From a virus (Duplodnaviria; Caudoviricetes), in the IMG/VR virus record IMGVR_UViG_3300033074_000614, positions 9,679 to 73,678 of that record: 64,000 nucleotides of DNA. The stretch is one strand, 5' to 3'. A program made the translations under genes and the position numbers. Below the pieces are notes generated by a model that worked only from the letters and a program-made list of their open reading frames with translations, did no database searches and was not told where the DNA came from. Below, one piece after another: positions 1 through 64,000 of this stretch (position 1 is the first letter of the stretch; each line of letters opens with the position of its first letter).

Positions 1-354
1 GTCGATCGCGGCGTACTGCGCAGAGCGGTAGGCGATGGTCCTAGCAACGGCAAACGGCGTTGGGGCGGGATCACGGACGAAAAGAAGCGGCAGTACATTC
101 AGGCTCTTGACGTTGCGCTGCGGTTATCACTTGAGAAGAGCGATCAGCGCGGGGTCAATGGGTGTGTAAAGACGCTGGCGATGTTGGAGGGGCAGAATCA
201 GGGCGATGAGCATTTAGAAATACGAATCAAGTCTGAAGCCAAGAACACCGACCGCGACATTATCCGTACCGCACAAGTCGCACTTTCACCCGAACAATCC
301 GACGCGCTCGCAAAGGTTGTCGATGAACTCAGCGGGAAGTTAGGCGATGCGTGA
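1..354 (+). CDS. 5'-truncated ORF in the terminase small subunit position (module A)
   Basis: Frame 1 is open from base 1 to TGA at 352-354, which overlaps the terL GTG (GTGA). Positional call only; it does not resemble the module B terS. Confidence 0.5.
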   Translation, partial: VDRGVLRRAVGDGPSNGKRRWGGITDEKKRQYIQALDVALRLSLEKSDQRGVNGCVKTLAMLEGQNQGDEHLEIRIKSEAKNTDRDIIRTAQVALSPEQSDALAKVVDELSGKLGDA

Positions 355-1814
355 TACTCACACCCGATCAAACTCTCAGGCTGGCGACCGCGCAACTGCC
401 TCACACGATGGCGGAACACTCGACGCGCGGACAGTGGAAGCCCTACCCGTATCTCAAGATGGTTTCTCGCATGATCGCGCGGGCAGTTGCCACTGGTGGA
501 GGACGTTTGATATTCAGCCTGCCACCGCGTACCGGCAAGTCTGAATTGCTCACCCGCCACGTTCCCGCATGGTATCTCGAAAAATACCCGCACCTGAAAG
601 TTATCAACTCTGCCCACAGCGTTGAACTCGCACGCTCACACGGGCGCGCCGTCCGCAATATGTTCAGCGACAACCCGTACTTCACGGTGAAGCTCAGCGA
701 CGATTCGACCAGCGCGAGCCGATGGAACACCGAAGAGGGTGGCGGGATGTTCTGCGCTGGTGTCGGCACCGGCATCATGGGATTTGGCGGGCACCTGATT
801 CTGGTGGACGATCCTTACCCCGGATGGGCAGAAGCCCACAGCCTGCAATACCGCAACAGGGTTCTCAATTGGTTTACGAACGATCTAATGAGCCGCCGCG
901 AACCGGGGGCAACGGTGGTCATTCTGCACCAGCGGATGCACGTAGACGACCTGACGGGCGTTCTAATGCGGGAACAGCCCGAAATCTGGACACACGTATC
1001 CATCCCGGCCATTGCCGAGGAAGGCGATCCATTGGGGCGCGCCGTTGGCGAGGCCATTTGCCCCGATCGGTACACCGTTGACGACCTGAACGCGATCCGC
1101 CGCACCCAAATCGGCGGGGATAGCGGTTGGCTCGCAATGTACCAGCAGCGACCCACACGAATCGGCAGCGGGCTGGCGTACAAGCGGTTTACTGACCGGC
1201 ACATTGACGAGGCGGTTGCGTACAACCCGAACCGGCCACTACAGGTATCTTTCGACTTCAATATCAGCCCCGGCATGTATTGCGAACTCGGCCAGTACGA
1301 TGAACACACCGATCAATTCACGGTTGTGGAAGAGGTGTATGGCGAACGCGCAGACATGATCGAATGTCTCGACAAACTCACCCCGATATTGCTGGCCCAC
1401 AAGTGGCCGGAGATTCAGATATTCGGCGATGCCACGGGCGGGACTCAGCATTCGACTCAGACAGGCCGGACCAACTACGAAATGATCCGCAACCATCTAA
1501 GCCGCGTGGGGATTCACGCCGCTATGTTCCGCGTGCCTCAATCAAACCCGTATGTGATTGAGCGCGTGTCGATCGTGAATGACGCACTTGCCGATTTGGG
1601 TGGGGTCCACCACACCAGAATACACCCGCGATGCACGCGACTCATTCGGGATATGACCGAACTGAAAACCGATGAGCACGGTCACCCGGACAAGTCGAAC
1701 AAAGAACTTTCGCACGCGGCGGACGCCTTCGGCTATCGCGTGTGTTACCAGCGGCCAATCGGCGGGCCAATGATTCAGCAGGTCGGCACGGTACTATTTG
1801 GAAGGGAATATTAA
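351..1814 (+). CDS. terL: Terminase large subunit (module A)
   Basis: Walker A PPRTGKS, Walker B LILVDDP, nuclease motifs SFDFN and HAADAFGY; lies upstream of the portal. Confidence 0.95.
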   Translation: MILTPDQTLRLATAQLPHTMAEHSTRGQWKPYPYLKMVSRMIARAVATGGGRLIFSLPPRTGKSELLTRHVPAWYLEKYPHLKVINSAHSVELARSHGRAVRNMFSDNPYFTVKLSDDSTSASRWNTEEGGGMFCAGVGTGIMGFGGHLILVDDPYPGWAEAHSLQYRNRVLNWFTNDLMSRREPGATVVILHQRMHVDDLTGVLMREQPEIWTHVSIPAIAEEGDPLGRAVGEAICPDRYTVDDLNAIRRTQIGGDSGWLAMYQQRPTRIGSGLAYKRFTDRHIDEAVAYNPNRPLQVSFDFNISPGMYCELGQYDEHTDQFTVVEEVYGERADMIECLDKLTPILLAHKWPEIQIFGDATGGTQHSTQTGRTNYEMIRNHLSRVGIHAAMFRVPQSNPYVIERVSIVNDALADLGGVHHTRIHPRCTRLIRDMTELKTDEHGHPDKSNKELSHAADAFGYRVCYQRPIGGPMIQQVGTVLFGREY

Positions 1815-3206
1815 ATGGGACTACTCAACTTCATTTCTCAAATCACCGGCTTTGGCGGCTCAAAGATCGTGGACACCGCAACGCTTCAGGGCGACAACGT
1901 TGTAATCAGTGGCGGCATCGAACACCACATTAACGAGATTGGCACGTTTGAGGAATACCGGCAGATGCGAACGGGGCCGACCATCGCACTGGCGCGGGCT
2001 ATCACGCACTCGGCTATCCGCTCAGCCGATTGGCTGGTTGAGTCCGACGACGATGTGCCCGAAGAGGTGATTAAAGAGTACAAGGTTTTCTTCGACGGCT
2101 TGCGTACTGAAATGCTCCGCAACATGATGTACTCGCTGGACTACGGGTTCCAAGTGATTCAGATTGTTTGGACGATTGACGACGATGGCGATGCGCAGGT
2201 CCAGCGAATCAAGCCGATCAAGCCCGATCTGGTGGCAAAGATCAATATCTTCGAGAACACCGGCAAGCTGGCGAGTATCGTGCTTGAGGGCGGCAAGGTA
2301 CTTGAGGCTACAGAGGTAGTGCTAGTCACCTACGACAGCGAGGGTAACGACCCGTTCGGGCGCTCACGCTACGAGAACATCCGCATTTACGCTTGGTTGC
2401 CGTGGAAGACAGCGGCCAAGCGCTGCGCCCAATACATGGTGAAAATGGCGGGCGTCCTGCCGATCATCAAATACCCAATGGGCGAGAACAAAACGGCTAA
2501 AGGCGAAACGCTGAACAATGCTGAAATCGCGGGCCGGATGCTCGATGGTCTGCCGCTCGGCAAGGGCATCGCAATTCCCACCGTGCTTATGAACTTCGCG
2601 GGCGATATGAAAAACAGCGGGGCGAAGATCGAAGACCTGATGGCGTGGAAGGTGGAATTTCTCGACGCGAAATCGGGGGCAGGTGCTGAAATCCTCGACG
2701 TTATGAAGCACTACGAGTCGCTCCAAATGCGCGGGCTGTTCGTTCCAGAACGCGCGGCAATTGAGGGCAGCACGGGCACCAAGGCCGAGGCCGAGGCGCA
2801 TGCAAGCGTAATGATCGACACGGCGCAGGAAGACGCTAGCGGGTTTGCAGACACGTTCAATAAGCAATTGGGCGACCGCTGGCTGGTTGAGAACTTCGGC
2901 GAAAGTATGCGGGGCAAAGTGCGGGCAAAGGCTACAGCGATTGCCGATGATCGTCGCGCGGTTCTCGAAACCATCCTGATTAACTACCTGAACAATCCGG
3001 CGAACATCGAAACGGTTGAACAGATTGTTGACTTCGACGCATTGATGGATCAGGCGGACGTGCCCAAGCGGGAGAAGGTTGTAGACGCGGCGGAACCCGT
3101 AGAGGCACCGGCAGAACTTCCCAAGCCCGATCCGGATACCGTCAAGCTCTCTCGCAATGCGAACGCACTGGCGAGGTTTATGCGTCAAATGGTGGCAGAA
3201 GTTTGA
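1815..3206 (+). CDS. Portal protein, DUF935/Mu gp29-like (A)
   Basis: 463 aa after terL; YDSEGNDPFGRSRY and GSTGTKAEAEAH motifs. Confidence 0.88.
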   Translation: MGLLNFISQITGFGGSKIVDTATLQGDNVVISGGIEHHINEIGTFEEYRQMRTGPTIALARAITHSAIRSADWLVESDDDVPEEVIKEYKVFFDGLRTEMLRNMMYSLDYGFQVIQIVWTIDDDGDAQVQRIKPIKPDLVAKINIFENTGKLASIVLEGGKVLEATEVVLVTYDSEGNDPFGRSRYENIRIYAWLPWKTAAKRCAQYMVKMAGVLPIIKYPMGENKTAKGETLNNAEIAGRMLDGLPLGKGIAIPTVLMNFAGDMKNSGAKIEDLMAWKVEFLDAKSGAGAEILDVMKHYESLQMRGLFVPERAAIEGSTGTKAEAEAHASVMIDTAQEDASGFADTFNKQLGDRWLVENFGESMRGKVRAKATAIADDRRAVLETILINYLNNPANIETVEQIVDFDALMDQADVPKREKVVDAAEPVEAPAELPKPDPDTVKLSRNANALARFMRQMVAEV

Positions 3207-4126
3207 ACCGTGCCGCCAAAAAACGAGTCATGGCGATGGACGCCGAACGCGAGGCAGTGGTAGACATTGCACAGCGGATGACGCGCCCGGTTATCGTCCA
3301 ACTTCGGCGCGGACTTATCGAGGCGTTCAAAGATGGCCGCAAGCCTGACAAGGTTTTTGCACAAGCTCGCAAGCAAATCGAGAACATCACAAACGAGGGG
3401 ATGCTCGCGGCACACGTGGCGGCTACGGCCAACACTGCGCAGATGATTGCGAAGGTGCGGGGGATCAAACTTGACCGCACAGCACTATCTCCGATGATGG
3501 ATCGACTCAAGAAAATCGCGGACCTGACCGGCAGCGACTTGAACGAAATCAGGGCGCGGTATGCGGTACGCGCGGCGGATACGAGTGACGATGCGATTGC
3601 AGCGGCTCAGGAATTGATCGGTAGCAAAGCACGCGAGATAGCGGCGAAGGGGCTTGGAACGCGCGACGGTGTATCTGCACTACGCGAGGCGATGGATTCA
3701 GCGGGATTGGGTACGCAAAACCCGCGACTATTGGAAACGGTCTACCGCACAGAGTTCTCGGTTGCTTACAACGGGGCGCGGTTACAGGCGAATGAAGCAC
3801 CGGAGTTGGATGAAATCATCGTGGCTTACCAATACGTCACGGTGGGCGATGATCGGGTGCGTCCGACTCATGCGGCGTTGGATGGTGCAACGTTCGCAAA
3901 GAATGATCCGAAGTGGAAGACGCTTGCTCCACCGAACGGCTGGAACTGCCGTTGTTCATTCATTGAAATATTAGACAACGAAGACTTTACCCCCAACCCA
4001 CCCCCAAAGTTCACCAACGATGGCGGCGTGAAGGTGCCAGTTGTGCCGGATGACGGGTTCGGATTTAACCCTTCATCAATTGGGCGGAACATATCGACCG
4101 GACTCAGTGCAAGAAACGCTCATTGA
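3203..4126 (+). CDS. Mu gpF-like head morphogenesis protein (A)
   Basis: YQYVTVGDDRVRPTHAALDG ... PPNGWNCRC signature. Confidence 0.93.
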   Translation: MNRAAKKRVMAMDAEREAVVDIAQRMTRPVIVQLRRGLIEAFKDGRKPDKVFAQARKQIENITNEGMLAAHVAATANTAQMIAKVRGIKLDRTALSPMMDRLKKIADLTGSDLNEIRARYAVRAADTSDDAIAAAQELIGSKAREIAAKGLGTRDGVSALREAMDSAGLGTQNPRLLETVYRTEFSVAYNGARLQANEAPELDEIIVAYQYVTVGDDRVRPTHAALDGATFAKNDPKWKTLAPPNGWNCRCSFIEILDNEDFTPNPPPKFTNDGGVKVPVVPDDGFGFNPSSIGRNISTGLSARNAH

Positions 4127-4371
4127 GGCTTAGTACAAAAGTCGGCGTGAATTTCAAACTTGAACCGCTCAAGGTGCCGACCGACAAAAACATCCATGCC
4201 GTTGAATTTGTCTATCGACTTCGCGCCGATCGGTATCGGATGCCCGTCCGATCGCAGGTCTTCAACGAACTCTTCCATGTTCCACACCACAAGAGAGAAC
4301 TCGCCCGGCCCCGAAGATTTCTCAAGGTCGGTACGCCATTCAATAATCGTTTTCTCTAGTCCGTGTCCCAT
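4120..4371 (-). CDS. Hypothetical antisense moron
   Basis: ATG at 4371 within ORF 4120..4488; fills a gap that is absent from module B. Confidence 0.5.
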   Translation of the reverse strand: MGHGLEKTIIEWRTDLEKSSGPGEFSLVVWNMEEFVEDLRSDGHPIPIGAKSIDKFNGMDVFVGRHLERFKFEIHADFCTKPQ

Positions 4372-4397
4372 AGATTTAACCCGGCGAATGTGGGGCG

Positions 4398-4598
4398 TTA
4401 GGAAGTTCTCTCTAGTTCCATTGACCAAATCGACATTATAAACAGAAACAGAAATTCCGTGGCAAGCACCTTGAGAACGACCGGGCACTGGCCGGGAAGT
4501 TCGACCGATGCGTCAAACCAAAGCGCATAAATAATCGTTGCAATCATCAGAACACCGCCTGCGACCATGCTCATTTTCAATAGTCTCTTTATGCTCAT
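4398..4598 (-). CDS. Small two-TM membrane protein (antisense moron)
   Basis: Two hydrophobic stretches; TATAGT sits 5 nt before the ATG, suggesting a leaderless transcript. Confidence 0.6.
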   Translation of the reverse strand: MSIKRLLKMSMVAGGVLMIATIIYALWFDASVELPGQCPVVLKVLATEFLFLFIMSIWSMELERTS

Positions 4599-4670
4599 AC
4601 ACAACTATATACCGACCAATGATTAGACAGCCAGCCTAGATTCTAAAAATCTCCCTACACACTATCTGGC

Positions 4671-5747
4671 GTGGAGAAAAACGCCAATCTTCCGCTTGTG
4701 TTCAGTTCTAGCTCGGCAGTTATCGCCATTGGCGAGGCTCGTACCGGCGAGGGCGGTCAACCCGTCCGCACATTCAAGAAGGAAATCGTACAGGCCGGAC
4801 AGTGGCGGCATCCCGCAGACGGTCAGCTAATCGACATTCCGCAGGCTCGCTTGTCACACTGGAAAGCCCAGTTTGATCGGATGGACGCCAACGGCATGAA
4901 GGTCTATGCACCTTCGGACCACACCCGCCAACCAGACGCTAATCGCGGATGGGTTACGGCGATGGAAGTGGTGGACGACAAGCTGGTAGCGACAATGGAT
5001 TTGATCGGCGAGGACGCTATCAAACTCGCAAGCCGTATCGACGTTTCAATTCAAGCCCGCGACCTGAAAGATGGCAAAGGGAACAAATACCCCGACGCTA
5101 TCGAGCATGTCGCATTGGTTGCAGACCCCGTTATCACTGGTCTGGAACCGTTCGTTATTCAGCTTTCACGGGCAAAAACCCTAGGTCTTTCAATCGGAGG
5201 CAGTGCAATGGAATCACTCAAGAAAATCGCCGCAGCTATGGGCATCGAAGCTGGCGAAATGGACGAAAACGACCTTACCGCCGCGATCATGGCTCATTGG
5301 GGAAAGTCCAAGGGCGAGAGCGACAAAATCTCTATGTCCCTGAACAGCGTTCAATCCGAGAACGCCACCCTGAAACTTTCAGCCAAGCCCGTCGAAGTCG
5401 ATCCTGACGTGCTGGAATCAGCCGCAAGTGGCGTAGAAGCCGAACTTTCGATGCTCGTTATGAGCCGCCAAATCACCCCGGCACAGAAGAAACTCTGGTC
5501 TGACCTGCTTTGCGGCACCGAGGCCAATCGCCCCGCGCTCATGCTCAGCCGCAAGGCCGCACAAGCCGCTGGATTTACCGCTCCGCAGTCCAAGCCGATC
5601 CTCGACATTCTCAAACAGGCACCTAAGCCCGATGGCTCTGGCGAAACCCTGTCACTTTCACGCGAAGGCGGCACCGATAGCGACGAACTCAGCAAAGAGG
5701 AAGTCGAGAAGATCAACGCAGACGTTAAAGCCCAACTCGGTCGGTAA
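4671..5747 (+). CDS. Mu gpI-like capsid maturation protease/scaffold (A)
   Basis: DHT..DANRGWV and IEHVALVADPVITGL motifs; internal GGAGG-N7-ATG at 5208 for an in-frame scaffold product. Confidence 0.85.
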   Translation: MEKNANLPLVFSSSSAVIAIGEARTGEGGQPVRTFKKEIVQAGQWRHPADGQLIDIPQARLSHWKAQFDRMDANGMKVYAPSDHTRQPDANRGWVTAMEVVDDKLVATMDLIGEDAIKLASRIDVSIQARDLKDGKGNKYPDAIEHVALVADPVITGLEPFVIQLSRAKTLGLSIGGSAMESLKKIAAAMGIEAGEMDENDLTAAIMAHWGKSKGESDKISMSLNSVQSENATLKLSAKPVEVDPDVLESAASGVEAELSMLVMSRQITPAQKKLWSDLLCGTEANRPALMLSRKAAQAAGFTAPQSKPILDILKQAPKPDGSGETLSLSREGGTDSDELSKEEVEKINADVKAQLGR

Positions 5748-5781
5748 TCAACAAACGCACACACCTCTTGGAGTCTGATTC

Positions 5782-6825
5782 ATGCTTAATAACGCTCCCG
5801 GCATTCCCGGAATCTCAAGTCTCGTAACGGCAGGCTCACGCGAAGTCTGGGCGGGCGATGATCGCCAGTACAAGCCCGGCGTTCACACCATCGACGGTGC
5901 GCTTTCCCGCGATACGGGCAACACCGGCAACCTCGACTTCCTCCGCGCTGGCCTGCTCATGGGCAAGGTTACTTCTGGCGGCAAATATGCCCCGTCGATC
6001 CTTGGTCTGACCGGCACAGCCTACGCATCTGGTACAACCTTGAACCTCGCACCGGCTACCGCCGTTGAATTGGTCCGCCGCGTTGGCGCAACCGGCACTT
6101 TCAAAGTGACCGGCCCACCGTCCGTCGCTGGCACAAGCCGCACCGCAACAGTCGCCTACTCGGCTGTCAATCAGGGCACCGGCGATGTGACAATCACCGC
6201 ACTTGGCGCTGATCAGGTCGAGCGCATCCGCTTCAATATCGCCTCCACTGGCGGCAATCTCCAGTTGAACGTCGCTAAGCCTGACGGCACATTCGTCACA
6301 ACCGCTAACGCCGCTTGGAACGCAACCGACGCGACCTACCTCGCTGCGATCAACTCAGCACTCGACACCGCAACCGGCGTTGTCGGCGGCATCGTCGCTA
6401 CCGCAATCTCGGCCACTGATACTGACCTTGGCATCACCCTCACCTACTCAGGCACCGGCTACGCGGGCCTCGCATGGCGCGCCGCTCAGGTTGTGGTTAT
6501 CCCCACCTCTTCCACCGAAGCCCTCTACGAACCCGTTACTACCGCAGTCCCCCGCGCCTTGGTCGCAGGCTCGCTTGTCCGCCCCACCGATGGCAGCGAA
6601 ACGGCTTTGACATTCATCGACAACGGCGATTATCCGCTCAAGGTCACAGACGTTTACAACGCAAGCATTGACGTTGACTTTGGCCCATTCCCGGTCGGCG
6701 GGTTGGTCACATGCAGCAACTTCATTCACTGGCCTGCCGACACCTCGACCCGCGCCGCTCTCCAAGCTGAATTGAACGCCGTCACTGGCGGACGTTTCCT
6801 GTTCACCGATCGTTACGACGCCTAA
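5782..6825 (+). CDS. Head decoration protein with inserted ~110-aa domain (A)
   Basis: Sits between scaffold and capsid; LRAGLLMGK..GKY ... DGSE.A ... WP core; Thr/Ala/Gly rich. Confidence 0.75.
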   Translation: MLNNAPGIPGISSLVTAGSREVWAGDDRQYKPGVHTIDGALSRDTGNTGNLDFLRAGLLMGKVTSGGKYAPSILGLTGTAYASGTTLNLAPATAVELVRRVGATGTFKVTGPPSVAGTSRTATVAYSAVNQGTGDVTITALGADQVERIRFNIASTGGNLQLNVAKPDGTFVTTANAAWNATDATYLAAINSALDTATGVVGGIVATAISATDTDLGITLTYSGTGYAGLAWRAAQVVVIPTSSTEALYEPVTTAVPRALVAGSLVRPTDGSETALTFIDNGDYPLKVTDVYNASIDVDFGPFPVGGLVTCSNFIHWPADTSTRAALQAELNAVTGGRFLFTDRYDA

Positions 6826-6876
6826 TTAGAACGCACACACGCGGCGCAGGCCGTGCAAATCTCTGGAGTCCCTCGC

Positions 6877-7962
6877 ATGACCGTCAATATGAACACGCTG
6901 ATTGGTACGCCCAAACTGATGGCAACCATCAACAGTCCCGCGATGGGATTGAAGAAAGCCTTTGATGAAAAGTTCTTCTCTCTGCGCGAAAACGCGGATA
7001 GCCAGACTTTCAAATGGGAACAGGTGCCGATTACTCAGACGACCGCTGCCGCCGTTTCCTACGGCTCGCCCGCTCGCCCAGCGCCCAAGACCGATATGAA
7101 CGAACGGGACGGGCGTTGTATCCACCTCTTTGAGTCGTTGACTCACAGCGGCCAGACACTTGTAGACCTGCAAAGCGATGTGCAAGAGACACGCGATCGC
7201 GCGGCCGGCGACTTCACTCGTCAGGCCGTCAACTTCGGTCTGCGGTTCGACAACACCGAAATCGCATCGGTGGCCTCCGTCCTCTCGCAGGGCGTGATCT
7301 ATCAGGGCGCAAACGGTCACATTCAGCTTACATCATCCGGTGCGGTTCGCACAATCAGCCTCGGTCGTCCGGCAGCCAATATGAATCAGTGCGGCGGACT
7401 TATCACCGCTTCATGGGCAACGGCTGGAACCGACATTCTCGGCAACATTCTCAGCATCCTCTCGGCAATGTCCAACGCTGGCCGTCCGTGCAAGAAGATC
7501 ATGTACGGCACGAACATCCCCGGCTACATGCGTGGCAATACCGCAATCAGCGGCATGTCCTCAAAGAGTTCGTGGCTTGCCGATCAACTCGCACAGTCAC
7601 GCCTCCCCGTTGGATTCGGCGATCCCGCCAATCAGGTCGTTTGGGAACCAATCTGGAACTCATTCTTCAAGGATGCAAGCGGCACAACCCGCACATTCTT
7701 CGATGGCGACGCTGTTCTCTTCCTGCCGGAAGTCGATAAGACTTGGTACACGATGGTTGACGGTGCGGCGATTGTCCCGACCAAGGTCGGACTCGCTGGT
7801 AACCCCGCAGAAGCCGCCGCAAGCCTCAAGAAGGTTCGCGGTAAGTTCAGCTATGCACGAATCAACGACAATCCCGTGAGCGTCGATCAATTCTTCGGTC
7901 ACTCATTCCTTCCCGTCCTGCTCGATCCTGCGGCGTTCTACACCGCTGACGTTATTCCCTAA
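6877..7962 (+). CDS. Major capsid protein, lambda gpE-like (A)
   Basis: Position, size and close paralog in B; GGAG SD before ATG 6877; followed by a terminator. Confidence 0.85.
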   Translation: MTVNMNTLIGTPKLMATINSPAMGLKKAFDEKFFSLRENADSQTFKWEQVPITQTTAAAVSYGSPARPAPKTDMNERDGRCIHLFESLTHSGQTLVDLQSDVQETRDRAAGDFTRQAVNFGLRFDNTEIASVASVLSQGVIYQGANGHIQLTSSGAVRTISLGRPAANMNQCGGLITASWATAGTDILGNILSILSAMSNAGRPCKKIMYGTNIPGYMRGNTAISGMSSKSSWLADQLAQSRLPVGFGDPANQVVWEPIWNSFFKDASGTTRTFFDGDAVLFLPEVDKTWYTMVDGAAIVPTKVGLAGNPAEAAASLKKVRGKFSYARINDNPVSVDQFFGHSFLPVLLDPAAFYTADVIP

Positions 7963-7998
7963 TTGATTCTTCCCGGCTAGGCCGGACCTTTCCTCCGT

Positions 7999-8033
7999 GC
8001 CCCGCTGGTCAAACTGGCGGGGCATTTGTTTTT
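7999..8033 (+). terminator. Rho-independent terminator after the capsid gene (A)
   Basis: GCCCCGCTGG-TCAAA-CTGGCGGGGC stem then ATTTGTTTTT; conserved in B. Confidence 0.75.
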
Positions 8034-9717: not shown

Positions 9718-9727
9718 GGGGATTTAG

Positions 9728-10729: not shown

Positions 10730-10767
10730 AGCGGCAATTCTATGCCCCGGCGAAATGGGGGCGTTCA

Positions 10768-55558: not shown

Positions 55559-55568
55559 AGGTTTTTCT

Positions 55569-55910: not shown

Positions 55911-56038
55911 AACTCCGCCGCTTCGCAATTCCCGCACTCGCCTTCCTCGCCGGCTTCGCGCTCGCGTTCGTCCTCGTCATCCACTATCGCGGCACGTCCG
56001 AGCGGGTCTGGCGTGCGATTACAGAGGACCATCCTTGA
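55907..56038 (+). CDS. 43-aa single-TM peptide (not in the ORF track)
   Basis: MKLRRFAIPALAFLAGFALAFVLVIHY...; TTGA overlaps at both ends. Confidence 0.55.
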   Translation: MKLRRFAIPALAFLAGFALAFVLVIHYRGTSERVWRAITEDHP

Positions 56039-57090: not shown

Positions 57091-57105
57091 GTGGTATGAT
57101 CTGGC

Positions 57106-57423
57106 ATGAGGATCACTCCCGGCAACCTTGACGCATTCATTGAGTCGGTGCGAAACTCTGAGCCAATTCGATTCAGCGGCGGGCCTCTAGACGGCCATGC
57201 GGTTCCGGCCAGTTTGGATATTGGAAAACAGTACATGCACCTGTTCATTGAACCCGCGAATCGGGAGCTTTTCCATCGTGGCACAAAGCACACGATCCGC
57301 GATGACCGAACAATGCTGGCGATATACGAGAGGACCGAAGACGGTGCGCCTCTGATTCTGCTTGGCTTGTCCAGTGACTGCAAAAAGGTGGCAGAGTCGC
57401 TTGAAGCTTCCGGGGGGATTTAA
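57106..57423 (+). CDS. Small GGPxDG-motif protein
   Basis: FSGGPLDG. Confidence 0.6.
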   Translation: MRITPGNLDAFIESVRNSEPIRFSGGPLDGHAVPASLDIGKQYMHLFIEPANRELFHRGTKHTIRDDRTMLAIYERTEDGAPLILLGLSSDCKKVAESLEASGGI

Positions 57424-57821
57424 TGGAACGCCGCTCATTCCTCAAAGTAATCGGTGCCGCAATCGGCTCGCTGTTCATTGGGATTCGCGCGAAGGCACGC
57501 GAGCCAAAGGTCTGCGAGTTCAAAGCAGTTCCGGGCGTGAATCCAAACGACTGGTACGATCCTCGCAACTGGGCGACAACGGGCGGGCACGTTCCGCAGG
57601 CTGGTGACACGGTGGTAATCAATCATGGCGCGGTGTGTTGGGAAAGTGCGAGAATGCACACCGACTTTGAGGGGAACATAATCACCGAAGTCAGCAACGA
57701 TGGCGAGCACTGGACTCGCGTGAACAATCTGACGGAAATGAAGATTCTGCCAGGCTTCACCGTCCCCGCCGAACACCGCCACCAACTCGACGGGCAAGTC
57801 GTTCCTTGGAGCAACGTATGA
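57423..57821 (+). CDS. Tat-signal secreted protein
   Basis: MERRSFLKVIGAAIGSLFIGIRAKA. Confidence 0.75.
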   Translation: MERRSFLKVIGAAIGSLFIGIRAKAREPKVCEFKAVPGVNPNDWYDPRNWATTGGHVPQAGDTVVINHGAVCWESARMHTDFEGNIITEVSNDGEHWTRVNNLTEMKILPGFTVPAEHRHQLDGQVVPWSNV

Positions 57822-57844: not shown

Positions 57845-58084
57845 TCATGAAACGGGCGGCGGGTCGATAGGCTTTTCATCCACCGGCTTAGGCGGCATCG
57901 GCCCCAAGAACCCCATCTGCTCGCACACGCCGCGAACCAGTTCCTCCGCGAAATCTGGATTCTGCAAATCCGCCAACAGCAGGGGGTCCGGCGTTTCGCC
58001 CGGTGCCAAATTCTGCAACTTGTCCAGCTTCGCCAGAGTTTCCGCGACTTCCGGCTGACTCATCGGTTTCACTTTTTTCGCCAT
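57845..58084 (-). CDS. Leaderless hypothetical protein with its own promoter
   Basis: Minus strand TTGCAC-N18-TACATT, then 6 nt to the ATG. Confidence 0.6.
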   Translation of the reverse strand: MAKKVKPMSQPEVAETLAKLDKLQNLAPGETPDPLLLADLQNPDFAEELVRGVCEQMGFLGPMPPKPVDEKPIDPPPVS

Positions 58085-58204
58085 GCGGGTAATGTAGCGA
58101 GTTTTTGGCGGGGCGTGCAAGGCGATTTGCGGGCCGATAACATATCGTTGGGCGTGAACGAACTCCTCCTACCCATCACCCTCGCTCTCGGGACTTGGCT
58201 GGCT

Positions 58205-58221
58205 GTCAGGATTTGGCCGGA
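58205..58221. repeat. 17-bp direct repeat copy 1 (copy 2 at 58408..58424)
   Basis: GTCAGGATTTGGCCGGA, exact, 203 bp apart. Confidence 0.9.
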
Positions 58222-58250
58222 CAAAAGAAAAACCCCGGTTTGATCCGGGG
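58221..58250 (-). terminator. Rho-independent terminator
   Basis: Minus strand ACCCCGG-ATCAAA-CCGGGGT-TTTCTTTTGT. Confidence 0.85.
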
Positions 58251-58284
58251 TCTTCCGCGTTCAATCCGAACGGCGTCTCAACAA

Positions 58285-58345
58285 TAGCGTGGGCTTGGAC
58301 TCGAACCAAGCGACTGCCCGCCCTCTGCCACTGAGTTACCACGCA
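58285..58345 (-). ncRNA. tRNA-like RNA lacking an anticodon arm
   Basis: GCGTGG/CCACGC acceptor; TA-ACTC-AGTGGCA-GAG D arm; GCTTGG-TTCGAGT-CCAAGC T arm; only ~11 nt between D and T arms; no CCA. Confidence 0.7.
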
Positions 58346-58397
58346 TGGTGGTGAGCATAGGGGGCATTGCTGCAATTCCTACCCCACCGTGAGCCAC

Positions 58398-58406
58398 ATT
58401 ATACCA
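58398..58406 (-). promoter_or_regulatory. Extended -10 promoter for the tRNA-like RNA
   Basis: Minus strand TG-G-TATAAT. Confidence 0.7.
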
Positions 58407-58408
58407 CG

Positions 58409-58696
58409 TCAGGATTTGGCCGGAGCGGGGCGAGGTGGTGGATTAGCCGGCTGGCGCGCGTGGTTCAATCTGACCAGTGAAAACGTATTCGTTTCGAGCT
58501 TGGTCAGTTCCCGGCTGTAGTACACCAATCCATGCGGGTAGTCCGGATGCTTCGCCGCTTCGCTGGTTTCGAGTCGGCATAGATACCCGTCGCGCGGGAT
58601 GGTAAACCCCGGATGCGTCGGGCGCAACGTGGCGGCGTACTGGAACACTGGTCCGGTGTGTTCATCAAGCCAAACTATCGGGCGGTATTCGCTCAT
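58409..58696 (-). CDS. DarA C-terminal-domain-like small protein
   Basis: Y...LRP...G...P..G....HG.V.Y.R.LT..E...F.L pattern recognised from memory. Confidence 0.5.
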   Translation of the reverse strand: MSEYRPIVWLDEHTGPVFQYAATLRPTHPGFTIPRDGYLCRLETSEAAKHPDYPHGLVYYSRELTKLETNTFSLVRLNHARQPANPPPRPAPAKS

Positions 58697-58887
58697 CGCT
58701 TCCCCTTCGGCCCCGGCTTCGCAGGCTTCATCCGCGCGATTGCCACGGCCTGCACTTCGGTCAACTGGAACGAGCCGTCGACCATCTTTGGACGATCCTC
58801 GACGTTAGGCCACAGACGCTTGATTCGCACGTTGACGCTGTTGCGGGTGAGGTTGAGTTCTGCGGCTAGTTGGGGGACGGTTTTCAT
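58693..58887 (-). CDS. Small HTH DNA-binding protein
   Basis: MKTVPQLAAELNLTRNSVNVRI; paralog of 18515. Confidence 0.65.
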   Translation of the reverse strand: MKTVPQLAAELNLTRNSVNVRIKRLWPNVEDRPKMVDGSFQLTEVQAVAIARMKPAKPGPKGKR

Positions 58888-59240
58888 TGCTTGCCCTCGG
58901 CTTTTGCGATGGCGGCGTTGAGTTGAGTAAACGCCGCATGTTCATCGTCGCCCCATGAATCGGGAGCGTTACCGCCAACAAACTGGCGGCGCATTGTCGA
59001 GTGTGTCAGCTTACACGCCGCGAGCAGGTCGGGCGCGGCGGACTGCAAACGCCACTGCTTTTGACGATCTTCAGATTCTTTTTCCCACTTTGCTTGCTGT
59101 TTTTCCTGCCTCGCCTTTCGCTTATCCGGGTCATGTGTACCACAGTACCACTTCCCGTTACGCTCGACCTTGGCGGCGTTTTTGCACGGGTATGTCACTT
59201 GGAAATCACCGTGAATTGTCTTGCAGCACTTGTTTCCCAT
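58884..59240 (-). CDS. Cys/His N-terminus plus AAPDLLAACK...AAIAKAEG module
   Basis: AAGGAG SD before ATG 59240. Confidence 0.65.
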   Translation of the reverse strand: MGNKCCKTIHGDFQVTYPCKNAAKVERNGKWYCGTHDPDKRKARQEKQQAKWEKESEDRQKQWRLQSAAPDLLAACKLTHSTMRRQFVGGNAPDSWGDDEHAAFTQLNAAIAKAEGKQ

Positions 59241-59292
59241 CGCAAATCTCCTTGTTATTCGACAATCCAATCCACCCGCGCTAGCAGGGGAG

Positions 59293-59592
59293 TTATCTGA
59301 TCCAGTTCCCCGCGTCAAGTGCCATCGGGCAACCGCGCGTGTACAGAATCTTCTCGCTGTCGTCCACGATGTTGCCCTCAAGTTCTTTGCCGCTCTTGTC
59401 GAGTTCCATCTTCCAAACGCGAGACTCGACCACGATCGCAACCTCATCGGAATCGGCGTCAAGCTCGTATGCAGCCGCTTCTTTGAGACACCGCTCGCGG
59501 TCGTCGGAATCGTTCTGCACGTCGTCAATTACATCGCCGAAGGCGTCTATCACCATCACGCGATACTCGGTCTTTCGTGCTGTCTTGGTCAT
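59293..59592 (-). CDS. Acidic hypothetical protein
   Basis: AAGGAG SD before ATG 59592. Confidence 0.65.
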   Translation of the reverse strand: MTKTARKTEYRVMVIDAFGDVIDDVQNDSDDRERCLKEAAAYELDADSDEVAIVVESRVWKMELDKSGKELEGNIVDDSEKILYTRGCPMALDAGNWIR

Positions 59593-59626
59593 TCCAATCT
59601 CCTTAGTTTCGGGCAAGCCGCGCCGG

Positions 59627-59657
59627 ACTCTTTCGAGTGCGGCGGGGTGGGTTAGAT
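59627..59657. repeat. 31-bp boundary repeat, copy 2
   Basis: Identical to 17909..17939; contains the TAA stop of 59652..59849. Confidence 0.9.
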
Positions 59658-59849
59658 GCGGACTGGTTTGTTGTCGATGATCTGGTGTGAGGCCCGCACC
59701 ATCTTGCGGCCAGCGGACGAAGGAAGGTCGGAATCGGCGACACGGGCAACCGCTTCGGCTGGTGTTGCAGCTTCGATCTGGACCGATCCCCAGTCGCCGC
59801 CCTTGGCTGGATATTCGACACGGTAAGTATTGAGTTCTGTTGCGTTCAT
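59652..59849 (-). CDS. First gene of the leftward early operon (MNAT..., 65 aa)
   Basis: Same leader and first four codons as 17939..18274; unrelated body. Confidence 0.7.
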   Translation of the reverse strand: MNATELNTYRVEYPAKGGDWGSVQIEAATPAEAVARVADSDLPSSAGRKMVRASHQIIDNKPVRI

Positions 59850-59887
59850 CGTGATTCTCCTAGTCAGGCAACACGCCTGTATCATTA

Positions 59888-59915
59888 ATGATACACACTT
59901 AATCGGAACTTTCAA
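59888..59915 (-). promoter_or_regulatory. Leftward sigma70-type promoter overlapped by a 12-bp palindrome
   Basis: Minus strand TTGAAA-N16-TATCAT; ATCATTAATGAT at 59881..59892. Confidence 0.65.
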
Positions 59916-60079
59916 GCGTTTGATTTCACATTCCGCAAAGATTTTCTTAATCGCCACCATTCTAAATAACAGATTGCCCAAGTTATCAGACACCCCGCGC
60001 ACGCCCTGCGTCCCATAAGTGAGAATCGGGGAAGTTTCCCCGGTTTCCTGAATCTCAGCCGTCAAGACTGGTACAAGCG

Positions 60080-61495
60080 GTGGTGCCAAGGGAGCTTTTG
60101 ATGCCAGATTGGACAATTACCGTTCGGCTATCGGACGGATGCGTGAAAATTGACTTGCAATTGCCGCAGGAACTTGCTAAGAACGGGATTATGGAATCAA
60201 TCCAACCGGCGCAAGTGGCGGACACGCCGCCAGTTACGTTGCCATTTCCATCTACCGACCAGTCCGAACTCGCACGCGATACCGATGCGTGGGGGGCTTA
60301 CTTGCGCGGGATTGGCCGGAAAGCCTCGACGATCGCCGCGTATCGCAAGACAGTGGGCGAGGCGGCGGCAGCTAAGGGGTGGACGCGGTTGTCGCAGGTG
60401 TCTCTCGACGCCGTGAGCGCGTATCTGTGCGAGCGGCGGGAGCGGCTTGGGTGGACCGGATCGACGTTTAACCGGAACATGGCGGCGTTTACCAACCTCA
60501 CCCGGTGGGCCAAGAAGACGCGGCGGACTGCAGAGAACGTGCTGGAGGACGTAGACCACGCCAAAGACTCCCACGGGGCCGGGGTGGGGCCGCTATCGCT
60601 ACTGCAGGTCGAGAGGCTAATGAGCTACACAACGACCCGGCAGGCCCTAGACAAGCGTTCTAGGACGAACCGCGTGCTTTATTGGTATTGGTTGATACTC
60701 GCCGGGATGAGGTTCAGCGAGCCTGCAGCGTTCAAGTGGAAGAATCTTCTGCTATCAGAGGAAATCCCGCTGTTCAGTTGGGAAGGGGCGATGCAGAAAA
60801 ACGGCAAGCGGTGCGAAATCGCCATTCACCCGGCACTTGTGCCAATGATCCTCGCCCACCGCGAAACCGTACCCCATGAGCCAAACGACCCCGTATTCCC
60901 CGGCACGCCCGCCCGCGAGACATTCCGAGCCGACTGCAGAGCTGCAGGTATTCCAGCCAAGGATTCGCGGGGTAGGCCCCTTAGTTGTCATTCGGCGCGC
61001 AAATTTTTCAGGTCGCACCTGGCCGAATTGGGTGCGTCTGGCGAGGTTATTGACTACCTAATGCGGCACGCGCGGGGCGTTTCTGACCGATACAACGTCA
61101 TTTCGCCGGTCGCGCAAGTGGCGGTGCTGTCAATGGTTAAGATAAATATTCGCGGAATCGTGGAAGAAAGTGTTGCAAATGGGGGAGAAATCCCGAATAA
61201 TGTATCTACCACCGAGCAGAAAGAAAGCATGCATACGATTTCCTATAACCCAGCTTTGACGACCGGCGAGGCATGCAAGTCTTCTGACGGTGGTACGTTC
61301 GGCGACAAATCTAACTCGCCGGTCCTTAAAACTGGGTTGGAAGAATCAGGCGACGAAGTTTCGACCAGCGCAAAGTCTCTGCCGCGCTTTGACCTGCGCG
61401 GCATACAAGCCTCCGATGGCATGAAGACTGCCGCCGCCGCGCTCTTGCGAGCCGCCGCTGACTTGCTCGACGCCTCGCGGGGGGTGTCAAAGTGA
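60080..61495 (+). CDS. int: Tyrosine recombinase/integrase (start uncertain)
   Basis: GMRFSE, HSARK, LMRH and DRY catalytic residues; N-terminal SAM-like domain; long C-terminal extension. Confidence 0.9.
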   Translation: MVPRELLMPDWTITVRLSDGCVKIDLQLPQELAKNGIMESIQPAQVADTPPVTLPFPSTDQSELARDTDAWGAYLRGIGRKASTIAAYRKTVGEAAAAKGWTRLSQVSLDAVSAYLCERRERLGWTGSTFNRNMAAFTNLTRWAKKTRRTAENVLEDVDHAKDSHGAGVGPLSLLQVERLMSYTTTRQALDKRSRTNRVLYWYWLILAGMRFSEPAAFKWKNLLLSEEIPLFSWEGAMQKNGKRCEIAIHPALVPMILAHRETVPHEPNDPVFPGTPARETFRADCRAAGIPAKDSRGRPLSCHSARKFFRSHLAELGASGEVIDYLMRHARGVSDRYNVISPVAQVAVLSMVKINIRGIVEESVANGGEIPNNVSTTEQKESMHTISYNPALTTGEACKSSDGGTFGDKSNSPVLKTGLEESGDEVSTSAKSLPRFDLRGIQASDGMKTAAAALLRAAADLLDASRGVSK

Positions 61496-62142
61496 CTACC
61501 TACCGCGTTGAACAAGGTGACTGCCTCGAATTGCTCAAGAGCCTTCCCGCTGGCAGCGTGGACGCCGTTATCACCGATCCGCCGTATGGAATCGCGCGAG
61601 TTTGGAAGGGTGGATCGGGAAGCGGATGGGGCAAGGCACGCGAACAGACCGCCGATCGCAATGCGTGGGATGCCACAGCCCCCGACCTTTCGGCGTTTCT
61701 CGCCCTTGACGTTCCGATGGCTGTTTGGGGCGGCAACTACTTCGACCTGCCCATATCACGCGGCTGGCTTGTGTGGAACAAGCCCGAAAGGAACTTCTCG
61801 CTTTCAGAGGCCGAGATTGCTTGGACAAATCAGGACGCGCCCATCCGCGTGTGTGATTGTCATCGCTCCGATTCGGGTCGGATACATCCAACGCAAAAGC
61901 CGCTGCAGCTCATGCGGTGGACTCTCGACAAAATGAATATTCCGGTTGGTGCAACCGTTCTCGATCCCTATTGCGGTTCAGGAACTACGGGGGTCGCTTG
62001 CGTTGAAATGGGAATCAACTTCATCGGCTTCGAGCTAGACCCCGACTACTGCACCATCGCCCGCCGTCGCATCGCCGAGGCTGTCCCGCTGTGGACGCCA
62101 GCACCAACACCCGCGCCAATTCAAGGGGAGATGTTCGCATGA
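61492..62142 (+). CDS. DNA methyltransferase (DPPY, N6-A type)
   Basis: ITDPPYG, HPTQKP, VLDPYCGSGTT; paralog of 53737. Confidence 0.93.
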   Translation: MTTYRVEQGDCLELLKSLPAGSVDAVITDPPYGIARVWKGGSGSGWGKAREQTADRNAWDATAPDLSAFLALDVPMAVWGGNYFDLPISRGWLVWNKPERNFSLSEAEIAWTNQDAPIRVCDCHRSDSGRIHPTQKPLQLMRWTLDKMNIPVGATVLDPYCGSGTTGVACVEMGINFIGFELDPDYCTIARRRIAEAVPLWTPAPTPAPIQGEMFA

Positions 62143-62480
62143 TCTACCGCGCAACCACAGACGCCCCCCTCTTCACCTTCGAGGGCGTAGAAACCCGCAC
62201 CACAGAAGCGTGCCAACGGCTCTCGACCCAATACCTCGACATCTTCAACCTGATGCGCGACGGCCAGTTTCGCACGTTGAAAGAGATCGAAACCGCGCTG
62301 AACGGTCGCTACCCGCAGGCGTCGATTTCCGCCCAGCTTCGCCATATGCGTAAAAGGCGATTCGGCTCGCACCAGATCGCCCGCAAGTCGCTTGGCGGCG
62401 GGCTGCACAGTTACCAACTCACGGTGAACGTAGACGCGCCGTTGGTTCTTAGTCCCGCGAATAAAGGAGAATTGGAGTGA
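62139..62480 (+). CDS. Winged-helix DNA-binding protein
   Basis: DG.FRTL.EI.....P.ASISAQLR..RK.RFG.H pattern. Confidence 0.65.
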   Translation: MIYRATTDAPLFTFEGVETRTTEACQRLSTQYLDIFNLMRDGQFRTLKEIETALNGRYPQASISAQLRHMRKRRFGSHQIARKSLGGGLHSYQLTVNVDAPLVLSPANKGELE

Positions 62481-62773
62481 ACACGCACACGCCCGGACCT
62501 TGGAAGATTGATAGCACTGTCGGCGGTTCGCTCGGCGACAAAGTTACTGCATCGGACGGCTTGACGGTTTGCAGAACGTCGCTCGAACGCTCACCTGAAC
62601 ACCGAGAAGCCAACGCGCGCCTAATCGCCGCCGCGCCAAGTCTGCTTGAAGTATGCAAAGCGGTCGCTACCCACATTGATCCTGATGCCCCCTGCGCCAC
62701 TACGAGCAGGAAAGAAGTCATGATGCAACTTCGCGCCGCAATTGAACTCGCAACCAAAGGAGCCTCGAAATGA
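62477..62773 (+). CDS. HTPGPW...ANARLIAAAP family phage protein
   Basis: Motifs seen directly. Confidence 0.7.
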   Translation: MNTHTPGPWKIDSTVGGSLGDKVTASDGLTVCRTSLERSPEHREANARLIAAAPSLLEVCKAVATHIDPDAPCATTSRKEVMMQLRAAIELATKGASK

Positions 62774-63387
62774 ACGAACTAATGACCGGCCTCAACCCGA
62801 AAGCAGACGACCGACTCGCAGCCGAGCTTGGCGTGACACTATTGCCAGAAGACTTTGTAAACCAGACCGCCTTTGCGCCCAACGGGCGAGACTGCACCAC
62901 CGTTATCGTTTCCAACGGGAAACGATTTCGACGCGGCGACTTGGTTCGTCCCGATGGATCATACGAAATTATCTTCGTCTCGTCTGTCAGCGGCAACGTC
63001 CTCACGGTCGTTCGTCGATACGGCGGCTCTGAACCGTTTTCTCTTGCCAATGGCACAAGGCTTATCAACACCGGAAACGCGACGCTCTCGCCTGAGCAGG
63101 ATGAGATTACGCCGACGTTCCACACCTCCGACTTCGCAGGCCCGCCAGTGAAGCTTGGGAATCGCGGATACGAGACTGACGCGAGCGGGAAGGCGATTGA
63201 AGTGCCAAACCCAATGTCGAAGTTCTGGCGCACCTTATATGACTCGCAGACGTTCACCGAAAAATGTGCGTTCGTGCAGGGCATGATCTACGCCCGCAAC
63301 TTATTGATCGGTAAGAAGATTGCAAACTGGGACGACGCGCACGACGTGATCGAAGCTGAAACAGAACGACTCCGTGACCTCAAGTAA
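62770..63387 (+). CDS. Paralog of 18746 with an inserted beta domain
   Basis: Shared N-terminus and SPEQDE..GY..DASG; ~82 extra codons. Confidence 0.7.
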   Translation: MNELMTGLNPKADDRLAAELGVTLLPEDFVNQTAFAPNGRDCTTVIVSNGKRFRRGDLVRPDGSYEIIFVSSVSGNVLTVVRRYGGSEPFSLANGTRLINTGNATLSPEQDEITPTFHTSDFAGPPVKLGNRGYETDASGKAIEVPNPMSKFWRTLYDSQTFTEKCAFVQGMIYARNLLIGKKIANWDDAHDVIEAETERLRDLK

Positions 63388-63459
63388 CTTCGCGCGTTGC
63401 GAACTGCCGCGCCTTGTTTTAGGACGCAAGGCGCGACGGTACTCAACGAAAGGAAAGAT

Positions 63460-63744
63460 GTGGACAGCTCAAAGAAAATTGACGATGGTGGACCGGCGTT
63501 CCCAATTCCGGTGGCAATGTGTCAAAACGTGAACGGCGAGGCGATCGTAATTGACTCCCAAGATCGTTGCGTTGGTGGCCTTTCACTCCGCGACTACTTC
63601 GCGGCGAAGGCGATGGCCGCGATGATAGACAGTTCGGTTCATTCTGAATCGTTCGCGGACTTTCATGATGGAAGCGCACAGACCTACGCGGCGAAAGCGT
63701 ACATCATGGCCGACGCCATGCTCTTAGCAAGGAAGTCGCAGTGA
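63460..63744 (+). CDS. GPAFP...LRDYFAA...ADAML family phage protein
   Basis: Motifs seen directly; AGGA SD before GTG. Confidence 0.7.
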   Translation: MDSSKKIDDGGPAFPIPVAMCQNVNGEAIVIDSQDRCVGGLSLRDYFAAKAMAAMIDSSVHSESFADFHDGSAQTYAAKAYIMADAMLLARKSQ

Positions 63745-63965
63745 CCCGCGTTTCCATGTATCGCCACGTCCGACTCACAGCCTCGCAGCAGGCCGAGGAC
63801 GACGCCTGCCCCGATGGCGCGCCTGACGTTGATATGTGCGACTGCGGCGAGGTTGCGACTCTCAAGTGTGGAACTACGCCGGTGTGTTCGGCGTGCAACT
63901 TGGTCAGTGCGATTGACGAAACCGGGGTGAGGGCGGATTACGCGGAATGTGAAGGGGCGGACTGA
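63741..63965 (+). CDS. Small Cys protein, paralog of 19075
   Basis: Diverged 5' end; near-identical 3' two-thirds. Confidence 0.65.
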   Translation: MTRVSMYRHVRLTASQQAEDDACPDGAPDVDMCDCGEVATLKCGTTPVCSACNLVSAIDETGVRADYAECEGAD

Positions 63966-64000
63966 TGAAGCGTAGATCGTGCTTCCTGAACGAAAGCGAC
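63858..64000. repeat. Direct repeat of 19192..19334
   Basis: One mismatch; runs to the window end. Confidence 0.95.

Follow-up and report, generated by a model that had tools for sequence, protein, structure and literature searches.

The 64,000-nucleotide stretch analyzed here (the window; positions 9,679 to 73,678 of IMG/VR record IMGVR_UViG_3300033074_000614) carries two diverged sets of virion genes one after the other, and raises the question whether a single virus could build two kinds of particles. The original prediction read it as a phage heterodimer or a tandem lysogen, in which a relative had been joined to a full genome by a single crossover in a small Cys gene, and held an assembly artefact to be equally possible. 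In this study, we propose that the contig is an assembly chimera of two mosaic relatives, which we call phages A and B, and assign to this reading a probability of about 80%. The contig most likely consists of 28.9 kb of A, a shared block (S) and one full turn of B, and its two virion gene sets are most likely no evidence for a virus that builds two particle kinds.

The duplication itself is as had been described. The genes from terL to the distal Cys-rich protein occur twice in the same order, forming 15 colinear pairs (351-15408 versus 37102-52492) with global amino acid identities, in pair order, of 57, 46, 58, 68, 81, 78, 51, 51, 46, 45, 31, 60, 42, 29 and 22%. The last Cys-rich ORFs (15290-15757 and 52493-52876) share 36% identity over 114 amino acids. 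Comparable DNA identity (65-82%) is confined to the head genes. To call these close paralogs is too strong: with head genes 70-82% identical in DNA, A and B are different species-level phages. A homodimer or concatemer of one genome was rejected, as the two units are 19-78% different at the protein level. For module A, the Pfam names Portal_Mu, Phage_Mu_F and Mu_Gp36 were transferred from a relative, Logan contig L019 (PF06074, PF04233, PF07030), and module B was named after its PHROG and Pfam matches (phrog_38, terL; phrog_113, portal; phrog_220, minor head protein; phrog_195, adaptor; phrog_29 and PF03864, major capsid protein). The small terminase candidates of A and B (g012 versus g064) gave no hit between them.

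Outside the virion modules, the leftward operons of A and B do share a similar layout, as had been pointed out, yet their common sequence is limited to a 56-nt patch in the promoter region (A 18264-18319 = B 59839-59894) and one 31-mer (A 17909 = B 59627). A Pfam search with the leftward genes of A gave no hits. Two of the rightward genes that follow the tail genes of B have homologues located 5' of terL in A. A promoter and terminator scan of 15400-22300 returned no more sites than shuffled sequence, and ARAGORN and Rfam found nothing on the window. The features of both phages are collected in the table.

Table. Features of the window and of the adjoining contig sequence (coordinates refer to the window).
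Feature	Position	Strand	Remarks
A upstream DNA	9,678 bases before position 1		PDDEXK nuclease gene, methylases, 658-aa protein
A gene 5' of terL (3' end)	1-354	+	136 aa; probable small terminase by position
A virion module	351-15757	+	terL, Mu-type portal, MuF-like protein, two unnamed head proteins, lambda-E-type major capsid protein, adaptor; in the 3' part unnamed tail genes, Cys-rich proteins last; pairwise identity to module B 22-81%
A leftward small genes	15678-18310	-	Divergent promoter region to their right
A rightward small genes	18515-19299	+	Last is the 74-aa Cys-rich gene (19075-19299)
Shared block S	19192-21648	+	2,457 nt; 3' end of Cys gene, Sak4-like AAA_24 ATPase (19408-20361), 153-aa ORF, SSB (20803-21255), 136-aa ORF; Logan unitig L011 is the same stretch at 100%, with the same start and end
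Internal 77-mer copy	19258-19334	+	Read as a graph vertex visited twice by the path
B early and middle genes	21649-37105	+	DUF1376 primosomal-like protein, IstB/DnaC-like ATPase, N6/N4 methylase, many small ORFs, 615-aa protein; Logan unitig L013 equals 21619-28235 at 100%
B terS	36617-37105	+	No similarity to the small terminase candidate of A
B virion module	37102-52876	+	Colinear with that of A
B rightward genes after tail genes	52907-57821	+	Methylase at 53737-54369
B leftward small genes	57845-60116	-	One with a weak HTH match
B rightward operon	60080-63965	+	Tyrosine integrase, methylase, four small genes, Cys gene
Tyrosine integrase	60080-61495	+	PF00589; 2.3 kb from the repeat
Methylase of B rightward operon	61492-62142	+	
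B Cys gene	63741-63965	+	
Second entry into S	63858-64000	+	65 exact nt, C/T difference at 63923, exact 77-mer to the contig end

Phage B, which extends from 19192 to 63857 (44,666 bp), behaves as one closed, complete genome of 44.7 kb. The late sequence of B (B-late) re-enters S, which leads into its early genes (B-early) and so closes a circle, bearing out the proposal that this interval is one full genome. The integrase is indeed present only once, as a single PF00589 gene; a third contig of 10-20 kb was counted as a carrier of this integrase together with gene g099. In the rightward operon, the contig is matched at 100% identity by Logan unitigs L015 and L016, the former of which stops 30 nt inside S, at 63887.

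The late sequences of A and B both lead into S. A-specific sequence stops at 19191, and the repeat that starts at 19192/63858 (19192-19334 versus 63858-64000) comprises 143 nt at a spacing of 44,666 bp, identical bar one base (T19257/C63923) and preceded by differing 5' ends of the Cys genes, exactly as reported before. Directly 5' of the repeat the identity is about 95% and is then lost within the 5' part of the 74-aa Cys gene; the Cys proteins of A and B are 86% identical. Within S, the Sak4-like ATPase matches PF13479 (AAA_24, E 6e-27) and phrog_124 ('Sak4-like', E 6.5e-11), with a better hit to the unnamed phrog_1366, and the SSB (PF00436, E 2.5e-33; phrog_44) is encoded one gene downstream. 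With a core-only RecA-like ATPase and a phage SSB nearby, S is a putative Sak4-SSB recombination module.

Read graphs branch on both sides of this block. Logan unitigs (which we take to be built with k=31) from runs SRR32380200 and SRR32380201 match the contig at 100% identity, and their breaks, at 17909/59627, 19192/63858 and 28206-28235, all coincide with sites at which A-type and B-type DNA have at least 30-31 exact bases in common. Breaks at 31-mers common to A and B mean that both phages are present in these read sets, which are public runs and may not be the source of the contig itself; SRR32380201 holds A-late (L014), B-late (L016) and S (L011), thus both genomes in the same data. Unitig L014 stops at 19221, 30 nt into S, and the unitig after S starts at 21619, so that S is unbranched for 2,457 nt and followed by a further branch at its right end. 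This branch at 21648, a second exit from S, is presumably that of A, but it could be that of another strain. As 2,457 nt exceed short-read inserts, entry to and exit from S cannot be phased, and the join thus lies in sequence common to both genomes and too long to be phased. A relative does enter at the small Cys gene, as originally stated, but the notion of a single point crossover there does not hold, since the identity in the Cys gene marks where a 2,457-nt block starts on the left, and independent read graphs branch on either side of this block.

The 73,678-bp contig physically ends at window position 64000, and it holds 9,678 further bases of A 5' of window position 1. The final 77 nt (63924-64000) are an exact copy of 19258-19334, with a mismatch directly before; numbered backwards from the contig end, mismatches occur at offsets 77 and 143 and are dense beyond. 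The end of the contig therefore overlaps with its interior over the length of a single k-mer, delimited by a mismatch. The length of this repeat suggests that the contig was assembled with k=77, a standard k of SPAdes. An exact 77-mer stop is what a path through a k=77 de Bruijn graph leaves on re-entering a used vertex, and a natural contig end at exactly that offset would be a coincidence.

In addition, phage A appears to have an early region of its own. The JGI contig L012 (Ga0364574_11713) corresponds to contig positions 1-8073 at 99.95% and runs 5.4 kb further to the left, into genes that are colinear with those of B at 28232-31306 and only 27-37% identical to them. We estimate the genome of A, which is incomplete in this contig, at about 43 kb.

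As far as their DNA was read, the relatives found show a single virion module each: these are two IMG/VR contigs (G001 and G002), which encode proteins 97-100% identical to those of module A, and a 42,138-bp Logan contig (L019/L030, of which 27.6 of 42.1 kb were read). All three are mosaic between A and B. The A-type portal, head protein and 658-aa protein belong to 90%-identity clusters of 6-9 members (JGI, Logan, ENA), and the B-type proteins are singletons in the same clustering. No second two-module contig was found in IMG/VR, INPHARED, GTDB genomes or a 15-billion-protein collection by searches that reach close relatives only, and the architecture did not recur in the parts read of these three relatives. 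Nor did a contig turn up that runs from A-late across S to A-early, or from B-late across S to B-early. Both halves were compared by Megablast with 50,697 phage records, with no match. IMG/VR scans with the terL of B or with the Cys protein returned nothing, and those with the terL of A, with the major capsid protein and with terL alignments returned the A-like fragments G001 and G002 and distant hits only. A metagenome scan with the Cys protein yielded a single distant contig of 6.6 kb, which showed no similarity at the DNA level. Relatives of the Sak4-like protein in IMG/VR (42-61% identity) were dropped, their virion genes being unrelated. GTDB genome scans with the major capsid protein gave first nothing and then only MAG contigs that were hit weakly (21-30%), of which two were from Planctomycetota; these might provide a weak lead to the host.

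According to the mechanism that we propose, the contig would not be a single molecule but a walk, in the shape of a lollipop, through a de Bruijn graph of short reads. Two related, mosaic temperate phages would have been together in one sample with a near-identical 2.4-kb block S in common. The assembler would then have followed 28.9 kb of A, entered S and left it along the branch of B, gone once round the circular (or circularly permuted) genome of B and halted on reaching, for the second time, the 77-mer vertex that lies at the entry to S. Presumably, A-late, S and B-early do not occur on one and the same molecule. The 77-mer stop, the branches on both sides of S, the early genes of A on L012 and the one-module relatives favor such a graph join over a heterodimer or tandem lysogen, so that the artefact, rightly named as a live alternative, now takes precedence over the two readings with which it had been ranked equal.

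The graph leaves some room for a real cointegrate, in which one homologous crossover in S joins circular A and B into a circle of about 89 kb with both virion modules and two copies of S, be it a replication or recombination intermediate, a plasmid-like form (episome) or a prophage. Its topology, with two entries into S, is compatible with this, and two entries and the presumed two exits fit an 89-kb circle that contains S twice equally well as they fit the chimera. S itself encodes a Sak4-like annealase and an SSB, types of proteins that promote phage DNA recombination (PMC5928155; PMC5499656). CheckV completeness values of 83% for this contig and 32% for G001 imply an expected genome near 89 kb, about 2 x 44.7 kb; this figure may have its origin in remote references, for instance Streptomyces phage ZL12 (90 kb), whose terL is hit at 36%. 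Assemblers also rarely cross an unresolvable repeat unsupported, and read-pair or coverage evidence for a passage from A-late to B-early may have existed. We nevertheless consider a cointegrate unlikely. The exact 77-mer stop shows merely that a path re-entered S, and 89 kb are probably unpackageable in a capsid of a 361-369-aa lambda-E-type protein, given a complete genome of 44.7 kb here and a relative of at least 42 kb. The unrelated terS candidates suggest that each half would be cut and packaged separately, A-type lineages are found without B-type proteins, and no second two-module contig was found in the four collections searched. It is equally improbable that the order A-S-B reflects an approximately 89-kb product of one crossover in the Sak4-SSB block that lasts as a prophage or episome.

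Somewhat different is the possibility that A truly continues through S into B-type early genes as a genuine unit-length recombinant, with a longer region common to A and B and a switch that lies to the right of 21648 or is absent. The contig itself bears no mark of a switch between A and B inside or after S, and mosaic exchange is pervasive among A, B and a relative, C. Yet the read graphs branch at 21648, the A-type sequence at the left end of L012 is already unlike B, and S is visited twice, which requires at least two molecule types or two copies of S; we judge this reading very unlikely. A tandem double lysogen, in which one attachment site would hold two adjacent related prophages and the repeat would be a hybrid att core, is hardly credible. 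Although tandem polylysogeny of related temperate phages is known and the only integrase is situated close to the repeat, the common sequence is a coding block of 2,457 nt instead of a short att-like core, and B-late re-enters S towards B-early, closing the circle before host DNA is reached. There is no host gene and no tRNA in the 73.7 kb, and the left end of A runs into phage early genes, which together contradict this arrangement.

Under the preferred assembly chimera, the biology left as real is ordinary: A, B and their relatives would represent at least four co-occurring mosaic temperate phages of an uncultured lineage that have recently exchanged the 2.4-kb recombination block. It is advisable to handle the record as a composite, with 28.9 kb from phage A and the complete 44,666-bp phage B; left uncorrected, it would distort statistics on genome length, completeness, clustering and gene content. 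An exact repeat of k length between the end and the interior of a contig offers a simple test for lollipop contigs. If the join were real, one replicon would hold two diverged, intact virion sets, which bears on phage host switching and module exchange, and one induced cell would make two capsid and tail types that differ in receptor and packaging specificities.

When compared to known systems, A and B resemble temperate phages that combine a Mu-type portal and a MuF head module with a lambda-E-type capsid and a Sak4-SSB pair (PF06074, PF04233 and PF07030 in L019; PF03864, PF13479 and PF00436 in the window). Their best terL identity to a cultured phage is about 36%, none being close, the tail genes of B gave no match in a PHROG search, and no gene of tape-measure size is among the genes present. 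Concatemers and duplicated genomes, which are flagged by CheckV, contain repeats of one same genome; the present contig also exceeds one genome unit and has a repeat at unit spacing, whereas its units differ by 19-78% at the protein level. Tandem polylysogens at one attB likewise have two related genomes head to tail with a repeat in between, but here the repeat is a 2.4-kb gene block, host flanks are absent, there is one integrase and the second unit closes on itself. Phage dimers and cointegrates, e.g., circular dimers of lambda, arise by homologous recombination, and a single crossover in a common block, here one encoding a Sak4-like annealase and an SSB, would give this gene order. Known dimers are transient and have units that are identical or nearly so; they are resolved, or else cut during packaging, and we know of no stable heterodimer with two diverged virion modules. 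Repeat-mediated chimeric contigs between genomes have been benchmarked for short-read viromes and metagenomes (Roux et al., 2017, PeerJ; PMC5610896). As in those, two co-existing viruses with a highly similar region are joined inside the common region, and the contig ends at repeat re-entry with an exact k-length overlap, the genomes being otherwise colinear and intact. The present case departs from the usual chimera in that one partner was crossed as a complete circle (lollipop) and in that both partners have fully colinear virion modules, so that the product mimics a duplicated genome.

The 73,678-bp IMG/VR record, classed as a linear virus contig, is most plausibly a composite (probability about 0.8) in which part of one phage (A) and the whole of a second phage (B) were joined by the assembler through a shared 2.4-kb block, S. 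The contig holds 9,678 bases to the left of the window and no N runs. Since the window covers positions 9679-73678 of the record, window position 64000 is the physical end of the contig. Neither closure at about 81 kb nor passage into host DNA beyond this point, both raised as points to check in the original prediction, takes place: the contig stops there, free of host DNA.

The duplication itself is real in the record. An all-against-all comparison of 101 ORFs, called with guidance from codon usage, gave 15 colinear gene pairs with 22-81% amino acid identity, in agreement with the two same-order virion gene sets that had been proposed. By global alignment, modules A and B are 57% identical in terL, 46% in the portal, 58% in the MuF-like protein, 68 and 81% in two head proteins, 78% in the major capsid protein and 51% in the adaptor. 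Identity falls to 22-60% in the tail genes and is 36% in the final Cys-rich ORFs, and DNA identity (65-82%) is limited to head genes. PHROG and Pfam recognized terS, terL, portal, minor head protein, a lambda-E-type capsid (PF03864) and the adaptor in B; the tail genes had no match in PHROG or Pfam.

The right end of the contig repeats 143 nt of its interior, 44,666 bp apart and with one difference, exactly as claimed. Compared leftward from the contig end, the terminal and internal copies first differ at offset 77 and differ again at offset 143. The terminal 77-mer is an exact internal copy and directly follows the sole base separating the A-linked from the B-linked repeat copy. For k=77, a standard SPAdes value, the de Bruijn graph has this 77-mer as the first vertex common to the edges entering S from A and from B (A-late and B-late). 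The path would have led from A-late through this vertex, onward and around to B-late and back to the same vertex, stopping since the next edge was already used. A path re-entering a used vertex leaves exactly this terminal signature. On this basis the contig represents a walk that passes twice through the same vertex and consists of a 28.9-kb tail (A) and a 44,666-bp loop (B); closure of the loop on the terminal vertex upholds the reading of 44,666 bp as one full B genome.

Contigs derived from Logan unitigs of runs SRR32380200 and SRR32380201, found by exact-protein look-up, are all 100% identical to the record. The Logan graph (k=31) gives 30-nt overlaps at branch nodes, and at every unitig break that could be checked A and B agree exactly over at least 30-31 nt, which places both phages in these read sets. 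S remains unbranched for 2,457 nt from both entries until a new branch at 21648, whose partner is presumably A's own continuation. The point in the 74-aa Cys gene that had been taken for a single crossover is the left edge of S: identity is lost leftward of the repeat inside this gene, and the shared sequence runs on for 2,457 nt. Short-read pairs cannot phase an identical block of 2.4 kb, and the order A-S-B is one of two pairings equally compatible with the graph. An ORF-free gap of about 520 nt begins right at the right-hand boundary of S.

Coordinates of the features discussed (window positions unless marked)
Feature	Position	Remark
Colinear pairs, module A	351-15408	
Colinear pairs, module B	37102-52492	
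Repeat, internal copy	19192-19334	T19257
Repeat, terminal copy	63858-64000	C63923
Internal copy of terminal 77-mer	19258-19334	
L014, Logan contig (A-late)	17910-19221	ends 30 nt inside S
L015, Logan contig (B-late)	59628-63887	ends 30 nt inside S
L011, Logan contig	19192-21648	equals S
L013, Logan contig	21619-28235	begins 30 nt before L011 end
Unitig breaks	17909/59627; 19192/63858; 28206-28235	last: match with A-type contig L012
ORF-free gap	21660-22176	no ARAGORN or Rfam match (gathering threshold), nor at 58205-58424
B early genes colinear with L012	28232-31306	
B post-tail genes	52907-55286	
B tyrosine integrase	60080-61495	
B methyltransferase genes	25971-26966; 53737-54369; 61492-62142	N6/N4 DNA
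A methyltransferase genes	L004:616-1296; L004:8334-9629	L004, contig start
60-nt stretch in methylase genes	contig 621; contig 63423	exact, one A and one B gene
Operator-like motifs	L004:1-620 (left of the window)	
347-aa head protein copies and tail protein sharing ~128 aa	5782-6825; 42284-43327; 50088-51308; L019:16303-17514	L019, 42-kb relative
Distal Cys-rich virion proteins	14101-15757; 51308-52876	25 Cys/435 aa; 29 Cys/394 aa

Phage A can also be followed outside the record. The 13,444-bp JGI contig Ga0364574_11713 (L012; sample 3300033075) matches contig positions 1-8073 with four mismatches and runs 5,371 bp further left. Its extension carries rightward early genes colinear with B genes and 27-37% identical to them, with short patches of near-identity. 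With an early region of its own, A stands as a genome parallel to B rather than a module added to it. Summing 28,869, 2,457 and 5,371 bp and the gap (the matching B stretch is about 6.5 kb), the A genome would be near 43 kb, like B. Gene order differs as well: in both A and the A-like fragment G001, homologues of the B post-tail genes precede terL.

Two A-like IMG/VR fragments, G001 (28.6 kb) and G002 (15.7 kb), with DNA 84-96% identical, have one virion module each. A 42,138-bp Logan contig from the unrelated run SRR23217750 also has a single module, an A/B mosaic over the 27.6 of 42.1 kb compared: its terL is 80% identical to A and 58% to B, and one tail protein 69% to B and 45% to A. Convergent early genes follow the module, and the remaining 14.6 kb, starting with a homologue of A's 658-aa protein, is shorter than the 15.4-kb virion module. 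Searches, which reach close relatives only, found no second two-module contig. In a collection of 15 billion proteins, the A-type portal, head protein and 658-aa protein fall into 90%-identity clusters of 6-9 members (JGI, Logan, ENA, MetaClust), and the B-type portal, head protein, Sak4-like protein and g042 product are singletons. The capsid-protein profile gave only weak genome matches (21-30%), in GTDB MAG contigs (L036, L037), two labelled Planctomycetota, a weak lead to the host. Window G+C is 53-61%.

The original prediction held heterodimer and graph artefact to be equal options; the assembly join is now favored. A real cointegrate through one crossover in S would give a graph identical to that of the chimera, yet it could hardly be packaged, as the complete genome with this capsid system measures 44.7 kb here and the relative at least 42 kb. 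Moreover, its halves differ in packaging specificity; the small-terminase candidates of A and B are unrelated. We thus regard a cointegrate as quite unlikely and, if real, as a transient intermediate at most. A homodimer was ruled out by the sequence divergence of the two units. Two prophages integrated in tandem, as also proposed, are contradicted by a repeat that is a coding block instead of an att core, by the return of B-late to the block preceding the early region of B, and by the absence of host DNA, tRNAs and Rfam matches. CheckV completeness (83% for this record, 32% for G001, 34% for G002) implies lengths of about 89, 89 and 46 kb, inconsistent among close relatives; the 89-kb values may stem from a remote reference of 90 kb, for instance Streptomyces phage ZL12 (terL match of 36%).

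Several further features accompany this probable composite of A and B. The 347-aa head protein encoded beside the capsid gene, 81% identical in the two phages, contains a stretch of about 128 amino acids that is found again, at 62-66% identity, in the 406-aa tail protein of B and in the corresponding tail protein of the 42-kb relative, and is absent from the 290-aa A homologue; it resembles a surface or decoration-like domain common to head and tail. Small ORFs with 9-10 Cys follow the very Cys-rich distal virion proteins. Neither module has a gene long enough for a tape measure and none of their tail genes matched a PHROG family, which suggests a short or otherwise unusual tail. Methyltransferase genes are numerous: B carries three, and the A part carries at least two, including a ParB-N-like/methylase fusion immediately upstream of the terminase genes. 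At its left end the contig begins within a PDDEXK_14 nuclease gene that points leftward; in the interval separating this gene from a rightward methylase gene, repeated CTACTACCTGT(A/G)GTA motifs resemble the operators of a divergent promoter region.

The integrase is single, as predicted, and heads a rightward operon continuing to the Cys gene and to recombination and replication genes; no att site was found, nor a recognizable attP beside it. S encodes a Sak4-like AAA_24 ATPase, a 153-aa ORF, an SSB and a 136-aa ORF. Sak4 with its cognate SSB constitutes a phage single-strand-annealing system (PMC5928155), and phage mosaicism has been linked to recombinases of the Sak4/SSB type (PMC5499656).
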